A DNA stretch of 19,317 nucleotides, taken from the UHGV virus genome UHGV-1601204; one strand, 5' to 3'. How positions within the stretch are numbered: position 1 is the first letter of the stretch; every line of letters starts with the position of its first letter. Positions 2,380 through 19,317 of this stretch are shown here, one piece after another. The DNA comes from a virus. The notes under the pieces were generated by a model. The model saw nothing but the letters and a program-made list of their open reading frames with translations. It was not told the origin of the DNA and did no database searches. The position numbers were made by a program, and so were the translations under genes.

Positions 2380-3171
2380 ATGAGCGAGAAATTAAAGATA
2401 GTCTATCGCCCATTACAAGAATTGTCACCGTATGCGCACAACGCCAGGACGCACAGTACTGAGCAGGTGGCACAACTGGTAGAAAGTATTAAGCAATTCG
2501 GCTGGACTAATCCGGTGCTGATTGACGAAAAGGGCGAAATTATTGCGGGTCACGGTCGTGTTATGGCGGCTGAAATGCTCAAAATGGATTCTGTTCCGGT
2601 CATTGTTCTGTCTGGCCTGACGGATGAGCAGAAAAAGGCGTACCGCCTGGCAGATAATCGCCTGCCGATGAATGCTGGCTGGGATGAAGATCTGTTGCGG
2701 ATGGAGCTGTCGGACCTAATCAATGCTGATTTTGATGTCTCCCTGACAGGCTTCATCCCGACAGAAATTGATGAACTGTTGACGGATGTTTTGCCCGGTA
2801 CAGGAAATGAGGAGGAGCCGTATACGACGAAAATTGATACGCCTGTTTATGAGCCGTCGGGCGGTAAACCGGATATCAGTGAACTGTACGACGATACGAA
2901 AACTCAGGAGCTGATCAGCCGGATACGTTCGGCGTCCCTTGAGCCTGATATTGAGAAATTCCTCCTGTGTGCGGCAGAACGTCACACGGTGTTTAATTTC
3001 AGCAGAATTGCGGACTATTACGCTCACGCCCCCTCTGAAATTCAGTGTTTTTTCGAGGAGTCGGCGCTGGTGATCATTGATTATCAGCAGGCTATTGAAA
3101 ATGGATTTGTCCGGATGACGCAGCGCATGGTGGAGATCATGCATGGTGGTGAGGAGGAGGAATATGCGTGA
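2380..3171 (+). CDS. ParB-like nuclease domain (ParB/Srx fold) protein, function unknown
   Basis: 263-aa ORF. N-terminal region resembles the ParB N-terminal domain: LSPYAHNARTHSTEQVAQLVESIKQFGWTNPVLIDEKGEIIAGHGRVMAA with a GxGR-type motif. The acidic C-terminal half is unassigned. SD-like AAGG upstream. Position matches ynaK downstream of trkG in Rac, as I recall. Confidence 0.7.
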   Translation: MSEKLKIVYRPLQELSPYAHNARTHSTEQVAQLVESIKQFGWTNPVLIDEKGEIIAGHGRVMAAEMLKMDSVPVIVLSGLTDEQKKAYRLADNRLPMNAGWDEDLLRMELSDLINADFDVSLTGFIPTEIDELLTDVLPGTGNEEEPYTTKIDTPVYEPSGGKPDISELYDDTKTQELISRIRSASLEPDIEKFLLCAAERHTVFNFSRIADYYAHAPSEIQCFFEESALVIIDYQQAIENGFVRMTQRMVEIMHGGEEEEYA

Positions 3172-4096
3172 TGATTTTTGCGCCTTTATTCTGACTCACG
3201 GGCGACCGGACAAAGTTCTGACTTACCGGACGTTGCGTCGTGCTGGCTATACCGGGAAAATTTTTATCGTTGTTGATGATGAAGATAAGACACGGCATCA
3301 GTACATGGCTGAATTTGGTGAACAGGTGCTGGTGTTTTCCAAAGCCGATATCGCCAGTCGTTTTGACGAAGCCGATAATTTCTGTGACCGCCGCTCAATT
3401 TTTTACGCCCGTAATGCCTGTTTCGACCTGGCAAAACTGGTCGGGTGTAAATACTTCATTCAGCTCGATGATGATTATCACGAGTTCCAGTTTCGGGTGG
3501 ATCGCAACTATGACCAGGCCTATTTTCCGATAAGGAAACTGGATGCGATCCTTTCTGAAATGCTGGCGTACTACGAATCAATACCTGCTCTTTCCATCGC
3601 TATGTCGCAGGGCGGGGATTTTCTTGGTGACAATGGCGGCCATGCTTCGTGGGTGAAACGCAAGGCAATGAACAGCTTTATCTGTTCGGTTGATCGACCG
3701 TTCTCATTCATGGGGCGCATTAACGAGGATGTGAATACGTACACGAATCTCGGTCGCTGTGGTGAATTGTTTATGACGATCGGTGCTGTCCAGTTAGGGC
3801 AGAAACAGACGCAGAAAAACAGCGGCGGAATGACCGAGCTGTATCTGGATTCCGGAACCTACGTTAAAAGTTTTTACTCCGTCATGTATGCGCCGTCGTG
3901 CGTAAAAATCTCACTGATGGGTGCCAGCCATAAACGCATTCACCATCAGGTCACCTGGAACAACGCTGCAGTAAAAATCCTTCACGAAAAATACAGGAAG
4001 AAGACACCCTGCATATCAATGGGGGTGACAAATGATTCCGTATTCGAAAGTCGAGTCTCTGGCAGCGTGCCGGATGACTGCACAACAAATCGCTGA
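3164..4096 (+). CDS. Hypothetical protein with DxD-type acidic motifs; possible nucleotide-sugar (GT-A-like) transferase, unverified
   Basis: 310 aa from ATG 3164, preceded by a strong SD (GAGGAGGAGG, 3151-3160); the track's 3143 start is less likely. Start overlaps the ParB-like stop (ATGCGTGA), suggesting translational coupling. Motifs: hydrophobic strand then acidic cluster (KIFIVVDDED; YFIQLDDDYHEF) and a C-terminal His cluster (HKRIHH). The fold assignment is my inference only. Confidence 0.6.
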   Translation: MRDDFCAFILTHGRPDKVLTYRTLRRAGYTGKIFIVVDDEDKTRHQYMAEFGEQVLVFSKADIASRFDEADNFCDRRSIFYARNACFDLAKLVGCKYFIQLDDDYHEFQFRVDRNYDQAYFPIRKLDAILSEMLAYYESIPALSIAMSQGGDFLGDNGGHASWVKRKAMNSFICSVDRPFSFMGRINEDVNTYTNLGRCGELFMTIGAVQLGQKQTQKNSGGMTELYLDSGTYVKSFYSVMYAPSCVKISLMGASHKRIHHQVTWNNAAVKILHEKYRKKTPCISMGVTNDSVFESRVSGSVPDDCTTNR

Positions 4097-4283
4097 CGTT
4101 CTGGATGTTGATCTGAACCGACTGAAAGAAAATCGGGAAGCAATGACAGATTTTTATGCGGCCATCCGTAAGGGCAGAGCGAAAGGTGAAGCCGAGTTAC
4201 GAGCGGCATTGTTTAAGCTTGCCAGAAAAGGGGATGCCTTTGCTCTGCGCGAACTACTCAGGGTGGATAAAAATCAGGACTAA
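4032..4283 (+). CDS. Small hypothetical protein, putative helix-turn-helix DNA-binding protein upstream of terS
   Basis: 83-aa ORF with SD-like GGGGGTGA (4021-4028) just before ATG 4032. Basic helical C-terminus (AAIRKGRAKGEAELRAALFKLARKGDAFALRELL). Overlaps the upstream gene by 65 nt, so the true start could be internal (for example ATG 4074). Confidence 0.5.
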   Translation: MIPYSKVESLAACRMTAQQIADVLDVDLNRLKENREAMTDFYAAIRKGRAKGEAELRAALFKLARKGDAFALRELLRVDKNQD

Positions 4284-4286
4284 CTG

Positions 4287-5381
4287 ATGAGCAGACCGGA
4301 CTGGGGGGCGTTGCAGCAGGAGTATATTGCTGAATACACCCGCTCCGGTATATCTCCGGTGGCATGGTGTGAAGCAAGGGGACTGAATTACGCAACAGCC
4401 CGTCGTTACATCAAAAAAACTCCGAAAAATGCGCAGACAGAAATGTGCAAAACTGCGCAAAAAAGTGCGCAGAAAAAATCTGCGCAGACTGCACAAAAGC
4501 GGAACGAAAAATCTCAGGAAAAAAAGCCAGTATTCGATGCGGGCCTGAATGAGGGCGACGCGGAGGAATTTTCGTTCTGTCCCGATGAATTCGGCATTTC
4601 TGACCAGCAGGCTAAGTTTGCGATGCTTGTTGCTCAGGGTAAAAAGCCGACAGAGGCGTACCGACTAGCCGGTTATGAGGGGCAAGGTGCGACAGCTAAT
4701 AGCAACGCCAGTCGTATGCTTAGAAATGCCAGGGTTTTTCGCGCTATCAGCTACTTCCGCAATCAGTACCAGAAACGCTATTCCGCAGACCTGGATTTAC
4801 TAGTGAGTCAGTTGATGGCCATTGTCCTGGCCGACCCCAATCAGCTTGCACAATTTCGCCGTGTTAACTGCCGTTATTGCTGGGGCGAGAATCATCTCTA
4901 CCAGTGGCGCGATATAGCAGAATTCGACAAGGCAGCGGCGCAGGCTTCCAGAGATGGCAAGCCCGAACCGGAATATGGAGGCCTCGGCTTTGTTGATAAC
5001 GCCATACCCAATCCGGACTGCCCGAAGTGCTGCGGTGAGGGAACGGGACAGCTTTATATGGCTGATACCACTCTGCTTGATGGGGATGCGCGGCAATTAT
5101 ATGCAGGGGCAAAATTCGGAAAATTCGGCGTTGAGATCCTGCTGGAGGATAAGGCTGCCGCCCGGCGTGAATTGTTGCGTTTGCTTTCTGCTGGCGGGGC
5201 TTTATGTGCAGATAAGCGGCTACAGGAACTGGAAATTGAACGGCGCAGAATGGAAAACCAGAAGCTGCGCAAAGAGATCGAAACGGTGGAAGATAATGAA
5301 CATCCCCAGCCTGTGGCGATCAATATTAATGTGGTTGATGCCAGAGTAAGGAGTGATGAAGATGATCTCTCCGACGCTTAA
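4287..5381 (+). CDS. terS: Terminase small subunit (TerS), Terminase_2-like
   Basis: 364 aa directly upstream of, and overlapping, the large terminase. N-terminal HTH-like segment (ISPVAWCEARGLNYATARRYIKK), then a low-complexity K/A/Q linker, then a region resembling the Terminase_2 small-subunit domain (AKFAMLVAQGKKPTEAYRLAGYEGQGATANSNASRMLRNARVFRAISYF). C-terminal Cys cluster and coiled coil. Confidence 0.8.
   Translation: MSRPDWGALQQEYIAEYTRSGISPVAWCEARGLNYATARRYIKKTPKNAQTEMCKTAQKSAQKKSAQTAQKRNEKSQEKKPVFDAGLNEGDAEEFSFCPDEFGISDQQAKFAMLVAQGKKPTEAYRLAGYEGQGATANSNASRMLRNARVFRAISYFRNQYQKRYSADLDLLVSQLMAIVLADPNQLAQFRRVNCRYCWGENHLYQWRDIAEFDKAAAQASRDGKPEPEYGGLGFVDNAIPNPDCPKCCGEGTGQLYMADTTLLDGDARQLYAGAKFGKFGVEILLEDKAAARRELLRLLSAGGALCADKRLQELEIERRRMENQKLRKEIETVEDNEHPQPVAININVVDARVRSDEDDLSDA
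4428..4500 (+). repeat. Array of TGCGCA-core direct repeats inside terS; candidate pac / TerS recognition site
   Basis: Exact TGCGCA at 4430, 4454, 4466 and 4481, plus variants TGTGCA (4444) and TGCACA (4490), most followed by A-runs. Spacing 9-15 bp. Encodes the linker KNAQTEMCKTAQKSAQKKSAQTAQKR. Confidence 0.4.
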
Positions 5382-13072: not shown

Positions 13073-14035
13073 GTGAGTTCAGGTGCAAAGGTTATCTCGG
13101 CATTTATCCGGGAGACAGTTGCAGGCACTACGCCAGCAAGTGGTGACTGGAGTTTATTAAAACGCACAAGCTGGGGAGTAAAACCCACCCAGAATAAAGG
13201 CGAAAATAATGAGATTGGTGGCTCCCGGATGGCTCAGGGGGCGACGCCTGGCACTGTGGATGTCGGCGGTGATGTTGGTACCAAATTTCGCTGGGGTCAA
13301 CATGATGATTTTCTTGCATCCTGTTTCGGCGCGGAATGGTCAGGCGATTCTCTGACAATGGGGAATGAGCGAATAACATTTTCTCTGGCGACCTATGCGT
13401 CCGATGTCGGAATTGCCTCTGTCGTCAGAGGAGCGCAGGTTGGCTCATGGAAAATGCAGATCCCTAACGACGGCGATATTACAGCGACCGTAACCTTTGC
13501 CGGGCTGGGCTGGGAATCAAAGGCCGATGATACGAATTTTATCAAAGGCGAACCTGTGGATAGTGCAGGAAAGTTACGCTATTCGTTTAAGGCGGTTTCA
13601 GCAGTAAGCCTGAATGGTGTTGCCGGAGGTAACGGTTTTTGTATCGACAGTTTTGATATTCAGTTCGATAACAAACTCCAGACACAGCGTTGTATCGGGA
13701 CTGGCTCGCCTTATGCAGGAGCAAATATTCCGACTACTTTTACACCGTCCGGTACGGTGACGCTTTCATGGTCTAAAGCCGCGTGGGAAATCTGGAGTAA
13801 AACACTGACTGGAGAAACAGTTCCGTTCAGCTTCACGCTTTCGAATGGAGAGGGGGCATACACTTTCAGTTTCCCGAAGGTTCAGGTGTCAGGTGAATGG
13901 CCTGATGGGGGTAATACTGACATTATCCAGGTTCAATTGAGCATTACCGCAGCAGATGAAGCACCTACGATAACCAGAAAAAAATGCTCCCCGACTGCCG
14001 TGATCGCAAAAGCCAGTGCTGATGCGATTAGTTGA
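13073..14035 (+). CDS. Putative major tail (tube) protein
   Basis: 320-aa ORF with GTG start 13073 and SD GGAGG (13063-13067). Lies just upstream of the chaperone and tape measure genes. Ser/Thr/Gly-rich, beta-rich-looking sequence. Not lambda V-like. Confidence 0.6.
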   Translation: MSSGAKVISAFIRETVAGTTPASGDWSLLKRTSWGVKPTQNKGENNEIGGSRMAQGATPGTVDVGGDVGTKFRWGQHDDFLASCFGAEWSGDSLTMGNERITFSLATYASDVGIASVVRGAQVGSWKMQIPNDGDITATVTFAGLGWESKADDTNFIKGEPVDSAGKLRYSFKAVSAVSLNGVAGGNGFCIDSFDIQFDNKLQTQRCIGTGSPYAGANIPTTFTPSGTVTLSWSKAAWEIWSKTLTGETVPFSFTLSNGEGAYTFSFPKVQVSGEWPDGGNTDIIQVQLSITAADEAPTITRKKCSPTAVIAKASADAIS

Positions 14036-14047
14036 TTTTCCGTTATT

Positions 14048-14074
14048 CCCCCTGTGGTACTGCACTACAGGGGG
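14048..14074 (+). promoter_or_regulatory. Stable hairpin without a U-tract, overlapping the SD of the tail chaperone gene
   Basis: CCCCCTGTGGT (14048-14058) pairs with ACTACAGGGGG (14064-14074): 11-bp stem with one G-U wobble, loop ACTGC. No T-run follows. The 3' arm contains AGGGGG, the likely SD for ATG 14084. Confidence 0.5.
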
Positions 14075-14083
14075 ACGCATTGA

Positions 14084-14545
14084 ATGAGGTTATGGATGTT
14101 TATTCTTAATCAGAAAATTATCATCGGTGGAGAACGCTGGTTTACGCCAATGAAGGACTTAAAACCTATAGACGGGTTAAAACTGTTGGTGGCAAGCAGC
14201 GATAACGATCAGTATCGCTCCCGTAATGCATTAATCCGTCGTCACATTGAGAAAATGGATGCCAGTTTGCACGTCGGAACGAAGGAGTTTGATATTTCAA
14301 AGGTTTCCGAGGTAGATTCTGTTGATGATTTACTCATTGATAATGCTGCTCGTTATCTGCTGAAAGACTGGAAAGGGGTTGGTGAACTGGTTAATGGTGC
14401 TGAGGTTGCACTGGAATATACGCCAGAACGAGGGATCGCGCTGCTTAAGCAGAATCCAGAGTTGTACTGGCAGATCCTTGCAGAAGCAGCCAGCATCGCC
14501 CAGGGTAAAGAGCAGCAGAAGCAGGATACGATAAAAAAGCCATAG
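14084..14545 (+). CDS. Tail assembly chaperone (lambda gpG-like), zero-frame product
   Basis: 153-aa ORF between the major tail and tape measure genes. Ends ...DTIKKP with the slippery heptamer A_AAA_AAG in frame just before the stop. Alternative starts at 14093 and 14150. Confidence 0.7.
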   Translation: MRLWMFILNQKIIIGGERWFTPMKDLKPIDGLKLLVASSDNDQYRSRNALIRRHIEKMDASLHVGTKEFDISKVSEVDSVDDLLIDNAARYLLKDWKGVGELVNGAEVALEYTPERGIALLKQNPELYWQILAEAASIAQGKEQQKQDTIKKP

Positions 14546-14853
14546 CCGCCCAGCGGTGGTTATCGGAGTTCGGGGGAGAAAGGGGGGAAAAGGCAAGATG
14601 GAAGCGAGAAAAACTCAGGTTGCCACCGATACCGGAACCAGAAATAGACCCGGTGCTTAAGGAATTGTTGTACGCCTATTCGGTAATATCCCGTGCCCGA
14701 CGTTATGCTGGAATGACCGGGGTGCCTTTGCCTTTATCTCTGACAGAGATAAATGAATATTTAGCCACTCATCCGGTATTGATTGAGCGCGATGAGTTTG
14801 AAGCAGTGATCTTTGCACTGGATGACCAGTATTTTCAGGAGCAGTGTGTGTAG
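14084..14853 (+). CDS. Tail assembly chaperone frameshift fusion (gpGT-like), made by -1 frameshifting at 14533-14539
   Basis: The -1 frame from 14539 reads AIAAQRWLSEFGGERGEKARWKREKLRLPPIPEPE... and continues into the track ORF 14620..14853 with no stop (my manual translation). Predicted fusion about 256 aa. The G/GT frameshift is a conserved feature just upstream of tape measure genes in tailed phages. Confidence 0.6.
14533..14539 (+). promoter_or_regulatory. Programmed -1 ribosomal frameshift slippery site A_AAA_AAG (G/GT-type)
   Basis: Heptamer A AAA AAG at 14533-14539 in the zero frame of the chaperone gene (codons AAA 14534-36, AAG 14537-39), two codons before its TAG. The -1 frame is open from here through 14853. 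Confidence 0.6.
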
Positions 14854-14976
14854 TTGTTAATTACGTACACTCTGTTACAGAGATGTGATGGTGTCTTTAA
14901 TTAAATCGATGATGCTCCTGGAGAAAAGCATTGCGTGGCCTCGTAATCGCTATATCTACTATTATGTCGCCTGAAA

Positions 14977-14997
14977 CCCACTTCGGTGGGCTTTTTG
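14977..14997 (+). terminator. Rho-independent terminator in the gap between the chaperone and tape measure genes
   Basis: CCCAC-TTCG-GTGGG hairpin (14977-14990, UUCG tetraloop), then CTTTTTGTTG. Confidence 0.6.
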
Positions 14998-15016
14998 TTG
15001 TCTGGAGTTTTAATAA

Positions 15017-15784
15017 ATGGCAGAGCAAACCTCGCGTCTCGCAATAATTATTGATAGCACTGGAGCAAAAAATAATGCTGACAATCTGACCTCCTCATTA
15101 GTCAAAATGACGCAGGCCGGGGAAACTGCTGCAAATAGCGCAGGGAAAGTGACTAAGGCAACAGAAGATGAGAAGAACGCGCTCGCAAAATTAAAAGCAG
15201 CTATTGATCCAGTTGGTGCCGCAATTGATACTGTCGGTCGACGCTATTCTGAATTAAAGAAATTTTTCGATAAAGGGCTTATTGATAAAGAAGAATATGA
15301 ATTTCTTGTCCGTAAACTTAATGAAACCACAGAGGAATTGAGCGGGGTTGCGCAAGCGCAGAGAGAAGCCGAGAAGGCCGGAAAACTTGCTGCCGCCCAG
15401 CAGGAAGCGCAGACTCAGGCCTTTCAAAGAATGCTGGACAAGATCGACCCTCTGGCTGCGGCGCTAAGAAATCTTGAACAACAGCAGGATGAACTTAATG
15501 CTGCGTTTGCATCCGGGAAAATAAATGGTTCTCAGTTTGAGAATTATAGCCGAAAAATACAGGAAACACGGCGAGAGCTTACCGGAGAGGCTCAGGCAGA
15601 GCGAGAAGCAGCAAAAGCGCATGATGAACAGGTTGCTGCTTTGCAACGTCTGATTGCTCAACTTGACCCTGTCGGAACTGCTTTTAATCGTCTGGTAGAA
15701 CAACAGAAACAGCTCAATGAAGCAAAACCGGAATGTCGGCAAAACAAACGGCTTTTGCTATGCGCATGTTGCCTGCACAAATGA
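15017..15784 (+). CDS. H: Tail tape measure protein, N-terminal segment (frame-disrupted from the remainder)
   Basis: 255-aa ORF starting [14 protein letters not shown], resembling the start of lambda H (MAEPVGDLVVDLS...) from memory. Contains three roughly 75-80-aa coiled-coil repeats (IDPVGAAI..., IDPLAAAL..., LDPVGTAF...). Ends in a 17-codon out-of-frame tail ([16 protein letters not shown]) overlapping the next ORF. Confidence 0.6.
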
Positions 15785-18150
15785 CGGATATTGTTGTTGG
15801 GTTGTCCACTGGTCAGTCGCCTTTTATGGTGTTAATGCAGCAGGGCGGCCAGCTAAAAGATATGTTCGGTGGGATTGGCCCGGCGATCAAAGGTGTTGGT
15901 TCTTATGTGCTGGGATTAATTAATCCTTTTACCCTGGCCGCAGCAGCCGTTGGCGTCTTAGGGCTGGCTTACTATAAAGGCTCTCAGGAGCAGGACGAAT
16001 TTAATAAGTCTCTTATTCTTACCGGAAATCAGTTGGGGACAACCAGCGGGCAATTGGCCGATATAGTTCAACGTGCCGGGAATGCGGCTGATTCGACAAC
16101 TGGCGCTGCGGCGGCAGTATTAAACCAGCTTGTGCGTTCGGGAAAGGTAGCGAGCAGTTCGCTGGAGCAAGTGACGACAGCGATAGTAAAAACGAGCGAA
16201 GTAACAGGAATATCAACCGAACAACTGGTTAATGACTTCAATGAAATTGCAAAGGATCCTGTCAGTGCCATATCAAAACTTAATGATCAGTACCATTTTC
16301 TGACAATTGCGACTTATAACCAGATTAAGGCGCTACAGGATGAAGGGAACCAGCAGGAGGCCGCCCGCATTGCGACAGAAGCATACTCATCCTCAATGAT
16401 CCAGCGCACCAACCAGATTAAAGAAAATCTTGGTTATCTTGAGACTGCATGGAAAGCTGTCGCAGACTCCGCAAAATGGGCATGGGATTCCATGCTGGAT
16501 ATTGGCCGTGAGGCCTCCCTTGATCAAAAAATCTCAGATGTTCTCCGTCAAATTGATGAAATAGAAAAAAATACCCGACCCGGAGTTTTCGGGTTAGGTG
16601 GCATTGGAGATGGCGGAGCTCAAAATAAAAGGCTGGCACGATTAAAGCAGCAATTGGGCGTACTTCAAGCAGAAAAAATTGCTCAGGACGTACTAAATTC
16701 ATCAATAAACGATTACAACAAGCGACAACAGGAAGGAATTGAACTCAGACAGAGAGCAGATGCCTTTTCAAAACAATATCAGACCCGGGAGCAGCAGAGA
16801 GCTAGTGAACTTGCAAAACTGGAAAAACTAAAGAGTCAGTATTCAAAGGAAGAATATAATAATCTTATCGCTCAAATAAATGAGCGTTATAAAGATCCAA
16901 AGCAACCAAAGGCGAAAGGTTATTCGGATGATGCTGCCCAACGAATGATTGATCATCTGAATCAACAGAATGCGTTACTAAGTTCACAAACTGAATTAAC
17001 CGTTAAATTAAGTTCCTCTGAACAGGAACTGGTTAAGTGGCGTCAGCAGATTGCCGACCTGGAGTCACGACCGTCATCGAAATTAACCAAGGATCAGAAA
17101 TCGCTTCTCTTACACCGGGAAGAAATAACCGCGTTGATGGAGAAAAATGTTGCGATTGAAAAAAATAACAGGCTAATCAAGGAATCCGCCGAAATAGCTG
17201 CATGGCGTGATTCATTGCAGGCTTCGATTGATAATCGTCAACAGGGGTATGATATTCAGATTGCTGGTTATGGGGTTGGCGATAAAAATCAGCAACGCCA
17301 GCAGGAATTACTGCGGATTGAACGTGAATATAACAATCAGCGTCTGCAACTTGAACGTGACTATGCAGATAAATCCCGTGGGATGTCAAATCATGTTTTT
17401 CAGGAGAAAATGCAGGCTCTGAATGATGCTCTGGAACGAGAAAAAGAAATTGTCAGACAGAAAAACGAGCAGCTCGATATTCAGGCAGGAGACTGGGTTA
17501 GTGGTGCCTCCCAGGGATTCAATAACTGGCTGGATGACACTAAGGATATCAGTGAGCAGATAAAATCAACCACGACTCAGATGTTTGATGGAATGACCGA
17601 TGCGCTGGGTGATTTTGTCACGACAGGCAAAGCAAATTTTCGTTCTTTCGCTACTTCCGTGATTTCGGATCTTAGTCGAATAGCATTAAAGGCTTCAATT
17701 ACTGGGATTTTCTACAGCATTAGTAACAGTTCTTCTGGGGGGATTTTAGGAACTATCGGGAGTGCTATTAGTAAATTTATTCCGAATGCAAAGGGCGGTG
17801 TTTATGAGTCTCCGTCATTGAACACGTATTCGAACGGTATTTATGATTCCCCGCAATTTTTTGCTTTTGCAAGAGGGGCTGGTGTTTTTGGTGAGGCTGG
17901 TCCGGAAGCCATTATGCCATTAACACGAACTTCCGATGGTTCTCTTGGTGTCAGAGCTGTTAATAGTAAAAGTGGTAATGGAGGCGGAGATATTACCTAT
18001 GCCCCTGTATACCAAATCACTATTCAAAATGACGGCCAGAATGGAGAGATTGGCCCTCAGGCAATAAAAGCACTTATGGGGATGGTTGATCAGCGGGTGC
18101 AGGGCAATCTGTTAAATATGCGACGTGATGGGGGAATGTTAAGTGGCTAA
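15733..18150 (+). CDS. H: Tail tape measure protein, main body (lambda gpH-like)
   Basis: 805-aa ORF. The N-terminal motif [41 protein letters not shown] matches the lambda H motif [40 protein letters not shown] from memory. Coiled-coil middle. C-terminus ...[10 protein letters not shown] resembles the lambda H end. It is in the -1 frame relative to the 15017 ORF. Confidence 0.85.
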
Positions 18151-18184
18151 TACGGAAGAATTTCACTGGTTACCAGAGGATGGA

Positions 18185-18481
18185 ATGAAAACAGAAAATA
18201 AACCATCGATAAAAACTGTAAGATTTGGCGATGGTTATGAGCAACGAAGTCCAAATGGACTTAATCATTCTCTGCGCGTTTTCACCTGTGATTTCAAAGT
18301 TGAGGCGAATGAACGTGATTCATTTGAAAAATTTTTAGCCCGGCATGAAGGCTATAAATCTTTTTTTTGGCGCCCGCCGGGTATTAACAGAAAAATCAGA
18401 GTGGTGTGTCGAACGTGGTCAGCGACAGAACATATCACCTATACCGATTTTTCGTGTCAGTTTGACGAAGTGGTGATCTGA
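18185..18481 (+). CDS. M: Minor tail protein M
   Basis: The track ORF 18143..18481 contains VRFGDGYEQRSPNGLN...FWRPPG...FDEVVI, matching lambda gpM (VRFGDGYSQRAPAGLN...FEQVVN) from memory. Start chosen at ATG 18185 (MKTENKP; lambda M starts MKTFRW) with SD GAGGA 6 nt upstream. GTG 18143 is an alternative. Confidence 0.88.
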   Translation: MKTENKPSIKTVRFGDGYEQRSPNGLNHSLRVFTCDFKVEANERDSFEKFLARHEGYKSFFWRPPGINRKIRVVCRTWSATEHITYTDFSCQFDEVVI

Positions 18482-19179
18482 TGCAGGACATACAACAGGA
18501 AACGCTGAATGAATGCATTCGTGCGGAGCAGTCGGCCAGCGTGGTGCTCTGGGAAATCGACCTGACCGAGGTAGGCGGGGATCGCTACTTTTTCTGTAAT
18601 GAGCAGAACGAAAAAGGTGAGTCTGTCACCTGGCAGAGTCGGCAGTATCAGGCCTATCCCATTCAGGGGAGTGGATTTGAGATGAACGGCAAGGGCAGTG
18701 CTGCCCGTCCGACACTGGCGGTCTCTAACCTGCACGGCATGATCACCGGGATGGCGGAAGATCTGCAGAGTCTGGTCGGCGGAACGGTGGTCCGGCGTAA
18801 GGTTTACGCCCGCTTTCTGGATGCGGTGAACTTCGTCAACGGAAACAGCGAAGCCGATCCGGAGCAGGAGGTGATCAGCCGCTGGCGCATCGAGCAGTGC
18901 AGCGAACTGAGCGCGGTCAGTGCCTCTTTTGTACTGTCCACGCCGACTGAAACGGATGGTGCCGTTTTTCCGGGGCGCATCATGCTGGCTAATACCTGCA
19001 CCTGGACCTATCGCGGTGATGAGTGCGGTTATCACGGTCCGGCGGTCGCGGATGAATATGACCAGCCGACGTCCGATATCACGAAGGATAAATGCAGCAA
19101 ATGCCTGAGTGGCTGTAAGTTTCGCAATAATGTCGGCAACTTTGGCGGCTTCCTTTCCATTAACAAACTTTCGCAGTAA
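18481..19179 (+). CDS. L: Minor tail protein L
   Basis: 232 aa, near-identical to lambda gpL as I recall it (MQDIQQETLNECIRAEQSASVVLWEIDLTEVGG...NVGNFGGFLSINKLSQ). Start overlaps the M stop (TGATG), as in lambda. Confidence 0.95.
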   Translation: MQDIQQETLNECIRAEQSASVVLWEIDLTEVGGDRYFFCNEQNEKGESVTWQSRQYQAYPIQGSGFEMNGKGSAARPTLAVSNLHGMITGMAEDLQSLVGGTVVRRKVYARFLDAVNFVNGNSEADPEQEVISRWRIEQCSELSAVSASFVLSTPTETDGAVFPGRIMLANTCTWTYRGDECGYHGPAVADEYDQPTSDITKDKCSKCLSGCKFRNNVGNFGGFLSINKLSQ

Positions 19180-19184
19180 ATCCC

Positions 19185-19317
19185 ATGACACAGACAGAAT
19201 CAGCGATTCTGGCGCAAGCTCGGCGATGTGCGCCAGCGGAGTCGTGCGGCTTCGTGGTAAGCACGCCGGAGGGGGAAAGATATTTCCCCTGCGTGAATAT
19301 CTCCGGTGAGCCGGAGG
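19185..19317 (+). CDS. K: Tail assembly protein K, 5' portion (continues beyond the window)
   Basis: ATG 19185 opens MTQTESAILAQARRCAPAESCGFVVSTPEGERYFPCVNISGEPE, matching the N-terminus of lambda gpK from memory. No stop within the window. Absent from the ORF track because it is truncated. Confidence 0.85.
   Translation, partial: MTQTESAILAQARRCAPAESCGFVVSTPEGERYFPCVNISGEPE

Follow-up and report, generated by a model that had tools for sequence, protein, structure and literature searches.

A probable 100-bp deletion between short direct repeats splits the tape measure gene of a Rac-type lambdoid prophage

Introduction

The tail genes of phage lambda, among them the tape measure gene encoding gpH, and those surrounding the Rac homologue of this gene, of which ynaA is the remnant in Escherichia coli K-12, follow a common order, namely tube, G/GT, tape measure, M, L and K. 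Within this order the tail assembly chaperones G and GT are produced by a programmed -1 frameshift, which is conserved in long-tailed dsDNA phages. Deletions between short direct repeats, formed by slippage or by microhomology joining, leave an established signature in the DNA, and E. coli lacI reportedly provided the classical description of such deletions arising by slipped-strand mispairing. As for the tape measure protein itself, both its N-terminal 154 aa and its C-terminal 60 aa are required for infectivity in phage TP901-1 (PMC5099701).

Here we describe a tape measure gene that is divided between two overlapping ORFs of different reading frames, and compare it to intact relatives, to the G/GT site of the same tail module and to deletions of the lacI type.

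Results

A lambda gpH-type tape measure gene in two frames

The window, i.e., the whole stretch of 19,317 bp that was analysed, is the late region of a Rac-type (trkG-bearing) lambdoid E. coli prophage, an assignment made because trkG is present. Its genes run in the order lysis genes, trkG, ParB-like gene, terminase, portal, capsid, tail tube, G/GT, tape measure, M and L, the tape measure gene following the G/GT chaperone genes and preceding the tail-tip genes M, L and K. In this position lie two overlapping ORFs, whose coordinates and translations match those given in a preliminary description of this DNA, the second ORF being in the -1 frame relative to the first (15017 mod 3 = 2; 15733 mod 3 = 1; Table 1). 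The first ORF begins with 237 native codons (M1-K237, positions 15017-15727), whose 711 nt are 100% identical in DNA sequence to the start of intact tape measure genes, and continues with an out-of-frame tail of 18 codons (15728-15781) and a TGA stop (15782-15784); its translation is N-terminal and coiled-coil-like, ending in 18 odd residues. The native frame of the second ORF is open from position 15721, and its ATG at 15733 corresponds to native M273. Its N-terminus reads MSAKQTAF directly followed by AMRMLPAQ, so that eight residues precede this motif when counted from the translation, and not nine, as was previously stated.

The second ORF scored well above the Pfam cut-offs (gathering scores) for tape measure domains, with 267.7 bits for TMP_2 (PF06791; cut-off 30.2) and 94.9 bits for Tape_meas_lam_C (PF09718; cut-off 23), and TMP_4 also exceeded its threshold. 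The same TMP_2 and Tape_meas_lam_C matches were found in the intact relative, where residues 270-1077 are colinear with residues 57-850 of lambda gpH (28% identity, E 4e-80). The lambda-H-like identity proposed in the preliminary description was therefore borne out by both the Pfam domains and the colinearity with gpH. Compared to gpH, this protein carries an N-terminal coiled-coil extension of ~213 aa (269 residues precede the aligned part, as against 56 in gpH), and the gene in the window further differs in being interrupted by a frameshifting deletion of 100 bp. Because the second ORF harbors Pfam tape measure domains and the native part of the first is identical to intact genes, the two-frame split is genuine at the sequence level, as opposed to a chance pattern of ORFs. 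A member of this family is one uninterrupted ORF with both ends, and the window copy is frameshifted; on its sequence, it is best classified as a pseudogene of the lambda gpH-type tape measure family and not as a functional member.

Table 1. Features of the split tape measure gene and of the neighboring chaperone genes (window coordinates)
Feature	Coordinates	Strand	Details and basis
G/GT tail assembly chaperone pair	14084..14853	+	slippery A_AAA_AAG at 14533-14539
ORF1, N-terminal tape measure fragment	15017..15784	+	255 aa; ORF list, translation, alignment to intact relatives
Surviving direct-repeat copy CTCAATGAAGCAAAA	15713..15727	+	second copy CTCAATTAAGCAAAA exactly 100 bp downstream in intact relatives
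Deletion junction, 8-bp exact microhomology AAGCAAAA	15720..15727	+	alignment to relatives
ORF2, C-terminal tape measure part, native frame	15733..18150	+	805 aa; ORF list, translation, Pfam, gpH alignment
ATGA overlap: ORF1 stop TGA and in-frame ORF2 ATG at 15781 (native M289)	15781..15784	+	

The split is due to the loss of exactly 100 bp

We searched window positions 14900-18200 (a 3,301-nt query) by megablast against 5,426 complete E. coli genomes, 1,097 of which contained the tape measure gene. In all 30 matches listed the query aligned in more than one piece, and in 29 of these 30 the pieces spanned 3,401 nt, i.e., the query plus 100 nt; the remaining listed match, H10 (strain DLI.6n), carries an IS3-family insertion in the tape measure gene. 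Over the same interval, the window and E. coli GN06156 are identical except for one 100-bp gap flanked by AAGCAAAA, the common prefix ending at position 15727 and the common suffix starting at 15720. When the whole window was compared to E. coli 23CRST032, 21 SNPs and a single indel, of 100 bp, were found. The segment missing directly after position 15727 corresponds to nt 712-811 of the intact CDS, which are codons A238-K270 and the first base of T271 (33 codons plus 1 nt). In the relatives this CDS is 3,234 nt long, encodes 1,077 aa and is annotated as a single CDS. These alignments demonstrate that the split is due to an exact loss of 100 bp, and not to a one-base error or a programmed frameshift.

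A 212-bp segment of the gene is uninterrupted in 1,066 of the 1,067 complete E. coli genomes that have the region, including the K-12 Rac remnant ynaA, and the two-ORF arrangement, which the preliminary description held would argue against a mutation if shared by intact homologues together with conserved signals for independent translation, was not found among them. The sole exception is strain 200177, whose tape measure gene carries an IS2 insertion (NZ_CM128589.1, locus 3145-4475) and whose match ends 1 nt before the right-hand direct repeat. We also considered the reverse polarity, in which the 100 bp would be an insertion in the relatives, and rejected it on the grounds that the segment is in frame, forms part of an unbroken ORF of 1,077 aa and is found in all but one of these genomes, the old K-12 Rac remnant among them.

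The deletion joins the best short direct repeats of the gene

In the intact CDS, the lost segment is flanked by two copies of a 15-nt repeat, CTCAATGAAGCAAAA at nt 697 and CTCAATTAAGCAAAA at nt 797, which are identical at 14 of 15 positions (consensus CTCAAT[G/T]AAGCAAAA) and share the exact 8-bp core AAGCAAAA, and the window keeps one of the two copies of this ancestral arrangement. This is the only pair of 15-mers with at most one mismatch within 300 bp of each other in the 3,234-nt gene. Moreover, when all 14,499 distinct possible 100-bp deletions were enumerated across a 19.4-kb relative, only one of them had a microhomology of at least 8 bp (a fraction of 7e-5), and this one is the observed deletion. 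The two repeat copies are read in different frames (QLNEAK versus SQLSK), and therefore constitute a chance repeat at the DNA level and not a protein repeat. No significant hairpin that would draw the repeats together was detected when the deleted segment and the repeats were folded as single-stranded DNA (-12.9 kcal/mol, z = -1.59).

Judged by its ends, the deletion bears the classical signature of a slipped-strand or microhomology-mediated event, and it is from this signature that we infer the mechanism in vivo. As in slippage deletions of the lacI type, the junction retains a single repeat copy, the length lost is the same as the distance between the repeats, and the best available repeat pair is used; set against those deletions, the case in the window shows nothing unusual. 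We propose that replication slippage, or another form of microhomology-mediated joining, took place between the 14/15-nt repeats lying 100 bp apart, and that one repeat copy would have been kept while 100 bp were lost from the 1,077-aa gene. As 100 cannot be divided by three, translation departs from the native frame past K237 and meets a stop 18 codons later, and the remaining 805 codons, with all the conserved domains, are stranded in the -1 frame with no initiation signal of their own. Taken together, we consider a real, very rare and recent allele, produced by a 100-bp deletion between short direct repeats in the tape measure gene, to be the most probable reading, with a probability of roughly 0.87.

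Recurrence of the junction and the possibility of an artefact

The alternative that survives best is that the source DNA is intact and that the 100 bp were lost either in vitro, when a polymerase switched templates from one repeat to the other, or in silico. Template switching in vitro also uses microhomology and would leave the same signature, and the junction allele proved to be scarce: a 42-mer spanning it was absent from every large collection searched, i.e., the 5,426 complete E. coli genomes, the GTDB species representatives, IMG/VR and the JGI metagenomes. Against this, the exact 255-aa product of the first ORF and a 789-aa product of the second are both present in a collection of 15 billion proteins, and both sit on two contigs, k141_37210 of ENA ERZ27304089 (18,660 bp) and SRR2565974_8552 of Logan (9,814 bp); in the gene calls of both, the 789-aa product starts at the ATG at 15781. 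Aligned to the window, the former contig shows 100% identity across 13.0 kb and the latter across 9.8 kb, the junction included in each case. The window extends beyond both contigs, and therefore represents a third record. All sightings of the junction are in metagenome assemblies, possibly of one sample: the two contigs may share a sample with each other or with the window, and we do not assume their independence.

The two contigs come from different pipelines, MEGAHIT (k141) and Logan, and so exclude an artefact specific to one assembler, leaving room for one that arose in the library. An artefact of assembly or of homopolymer reading is very unlikely, because the deletion recurs with different pipelines and is the only indel of the window; a noisy assembly would not be expected to match its relative over 19.3 kb with this single exception. 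At the k values used, a de Bruijn graph should, in addition, not collapse on a repeat of only 8-15 bp, and chimeric molecules would not normally dominate a consensus. The roundness of the 100-bp gap led us to consider a non-biological edit as well, a notion we rejected in view of the 8-bp microhomology (p ~7e-5) and of the junction's presence in two public contigs. On balance, we regard the loss of the 100 bp outside the cell as improbable.

Recoding or reinitiation at the split

Less probable still is that the split is tolerated or functional, either through -1 recoding that fuses the two ORFs or through termination-reinitiation at the ATGA overlap, yielding a truncated tape measure protein of roughly the size of gpH. 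The stop of the first ORF does overlap an in-frame ATG of the second, and the second ORF holds every conserved domain and aligns with gpH 57-850; nevertheless, the signals that either route would use were not found. No X_XXY_YYZ heptamer in the frame of the first ORF is present in the overlap (scan of 15700-15785), no Shine-Dalgarno-like sequence was seen by reading of the sequence before the ATGs at 15733, 15760, 15766 and 15781, and no promoter-like site precedes the second ORF (scan of 14000-18500 for promoters and terminators, with counts at shuffle expectation). The preliminary description had noted the lack of a slippery heptamer in the overlap and of a good Shine-Dalgarno sequence before the ATG at 15733, and had judged programmed frameshifting and independent initiation unlikely; our analysis agrees on both signals, and the continuous ORF of the relatives supports its judgment. 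Furthermore, the two-ORF layout is conserved in no relative, and hence nothing has selected for the split, and the N-terminal part of the tape measure protein is required in TP901-1. The TMP_2 match starts at residue 267, and a product initiated at M289 would thus also be missing 22 residues from the beginning of this match.

The tail module does contain a site of programmed recoding, 1.2 kb upstream of the overlap, in the G/GT pair. There, a canonical slippery heptamer is in phase, located three codons ahead of the stop that closes the YdaY-type G ORF. The -1 frame stays open between 14509 and 14853, and the resulting GT fusion has ~256 aa, its T part weakly matching Phage_TAC_18. This site is the genuine programmed frameshift of the module. 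The tape measure split resembles it in that two ORFs of the same tail module overlap, one in the 0 and the other in the -1 frame, but the split has no in-phase heptamer and its layout is not kept in relatives, whereas G/GT has both.

Returning to the deletion allele, we conclude that the ATGA overlap is an accidental by-product of the frameshift. Low-level translation of the second ORF by reinitiation at this overlap could occur. There is a slight chance that such reinitiation might yield a 789-aa protein without the N-terminal extension, close in size to lambda gpH (853 aa). If this protein were made and assembled, tails would be roughly a quarter shorter, and the allele would offer a natural test of whether the ~270-aa N-terminal region is dispensable in this tape measure family.

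The weakest alternative, in which a gene of 1,044 aa would have lost one nucleotide, or had a homopolymer misread, near 15731-15735, has next to no probability, as one added base there does reopen the frame, but 100 bp are missing by direct alignment, the relatives encode 1,077 aa and the window is identical to them around these positions. This had been the explanation offered in the preliminary description, along with the advice to align intact homologues, an alignment that revealed the 100-bp gap instead of 1 nt and placed the junction at 15720-15727. Its arithmetic was sound, in that one extra A restores a frame of ~1044 aa, but the ancestor had 1,077 aa, and so the protein reading NEAKPEMSAKQ never existed; nor does a homopolymer sequencing error fit a sequence whose only indel over 19.3 kb is 100 bp long and whose junction recurs identically in two other assemblies. 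What stands is its view of the split as a mutation, given that the relatives have one continuous ORF and that recoding and initiation signals are lacking.

Discussion

A tape measure protein whose two ends are separated is expected to be inactive, because TP901-1 needs both ends (PMC5099701), and the prophage should consequently be unable to build normal tails. The 2.4 kb left untranslated may, in addition, exert polarity on the downstream genes M, L, K and beyond. We regard the tape measure gene as an ordinary recent pseudogene, an instance of prophage decay of a well-known kind. For annotation, this means that the two ORFs should be combined into a single tape measure pseudogene whose frame is shifted by a 100-bp deletion, and that the prophage should be scored as tail-defective; beyond annotation the case matters little. 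It does illustrate that a split which fits a 1-nt slip arithmetically can hide a larger lesion, revealed only by alignment to an intact relative, and the allele provides a clean natural example of a deletion that used the best of all short direct repeats available in a gene.

The same gene has been inactivated independently in other copies, by IS2 in strain 200177, by an IS3-family element in DLI.6n and by truncation in K-12, where ynaA is a truncated tape measure copy. In contrast to these IS insertions and large truncations, the lesion in the window is a small repeat-mediated deletion. The gene is intact in the vB_EcoS-473R12 record (99.6% identity). We did not accept this record as proof that an intact prophage makes virions, since it describes a PHASTER-predicted prophage and not an isolated phage.

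Several further observations were made in the window. RefSeq relatives annotate the halves of G/GT separately, as 'YdaY' and 'hypothetical protein', without a frameshift product. A gap of 163 bp separates the T ORF from the tape measure ATG, and in it a terminator-like hairpin, CCCAC-TTCG-GTGGG followed by CTTTTTGTTG, occupies positions 14977-15000, 17 nt upstream of the start, although the counts of such sites in the scan were at chance level. The potassium transporter gene trkG (767-2242) is Rac-prophage cargo, with the lysis genes on one side and the ParB-like and terminase genes on the other. The ParB/Srx-like ORF (2380-3171) is continuous and encodes 263 aa, as it does in the vB_EcoS-473R12 record; the RefSeq annotation of 23CRST032 divides it into a 'ynaK' pseudogene and a 'transcriptional regulator', which is probably an annotation inconsistency. 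Lastly, 17 of the 21 substitutions relative to 23CRST032 cluster at 18960-19286 (~330 bp), in the gene of minor tail protein L, a pattern suggestive of a small patch of recombination within prophages that are otherwise nearly identical.
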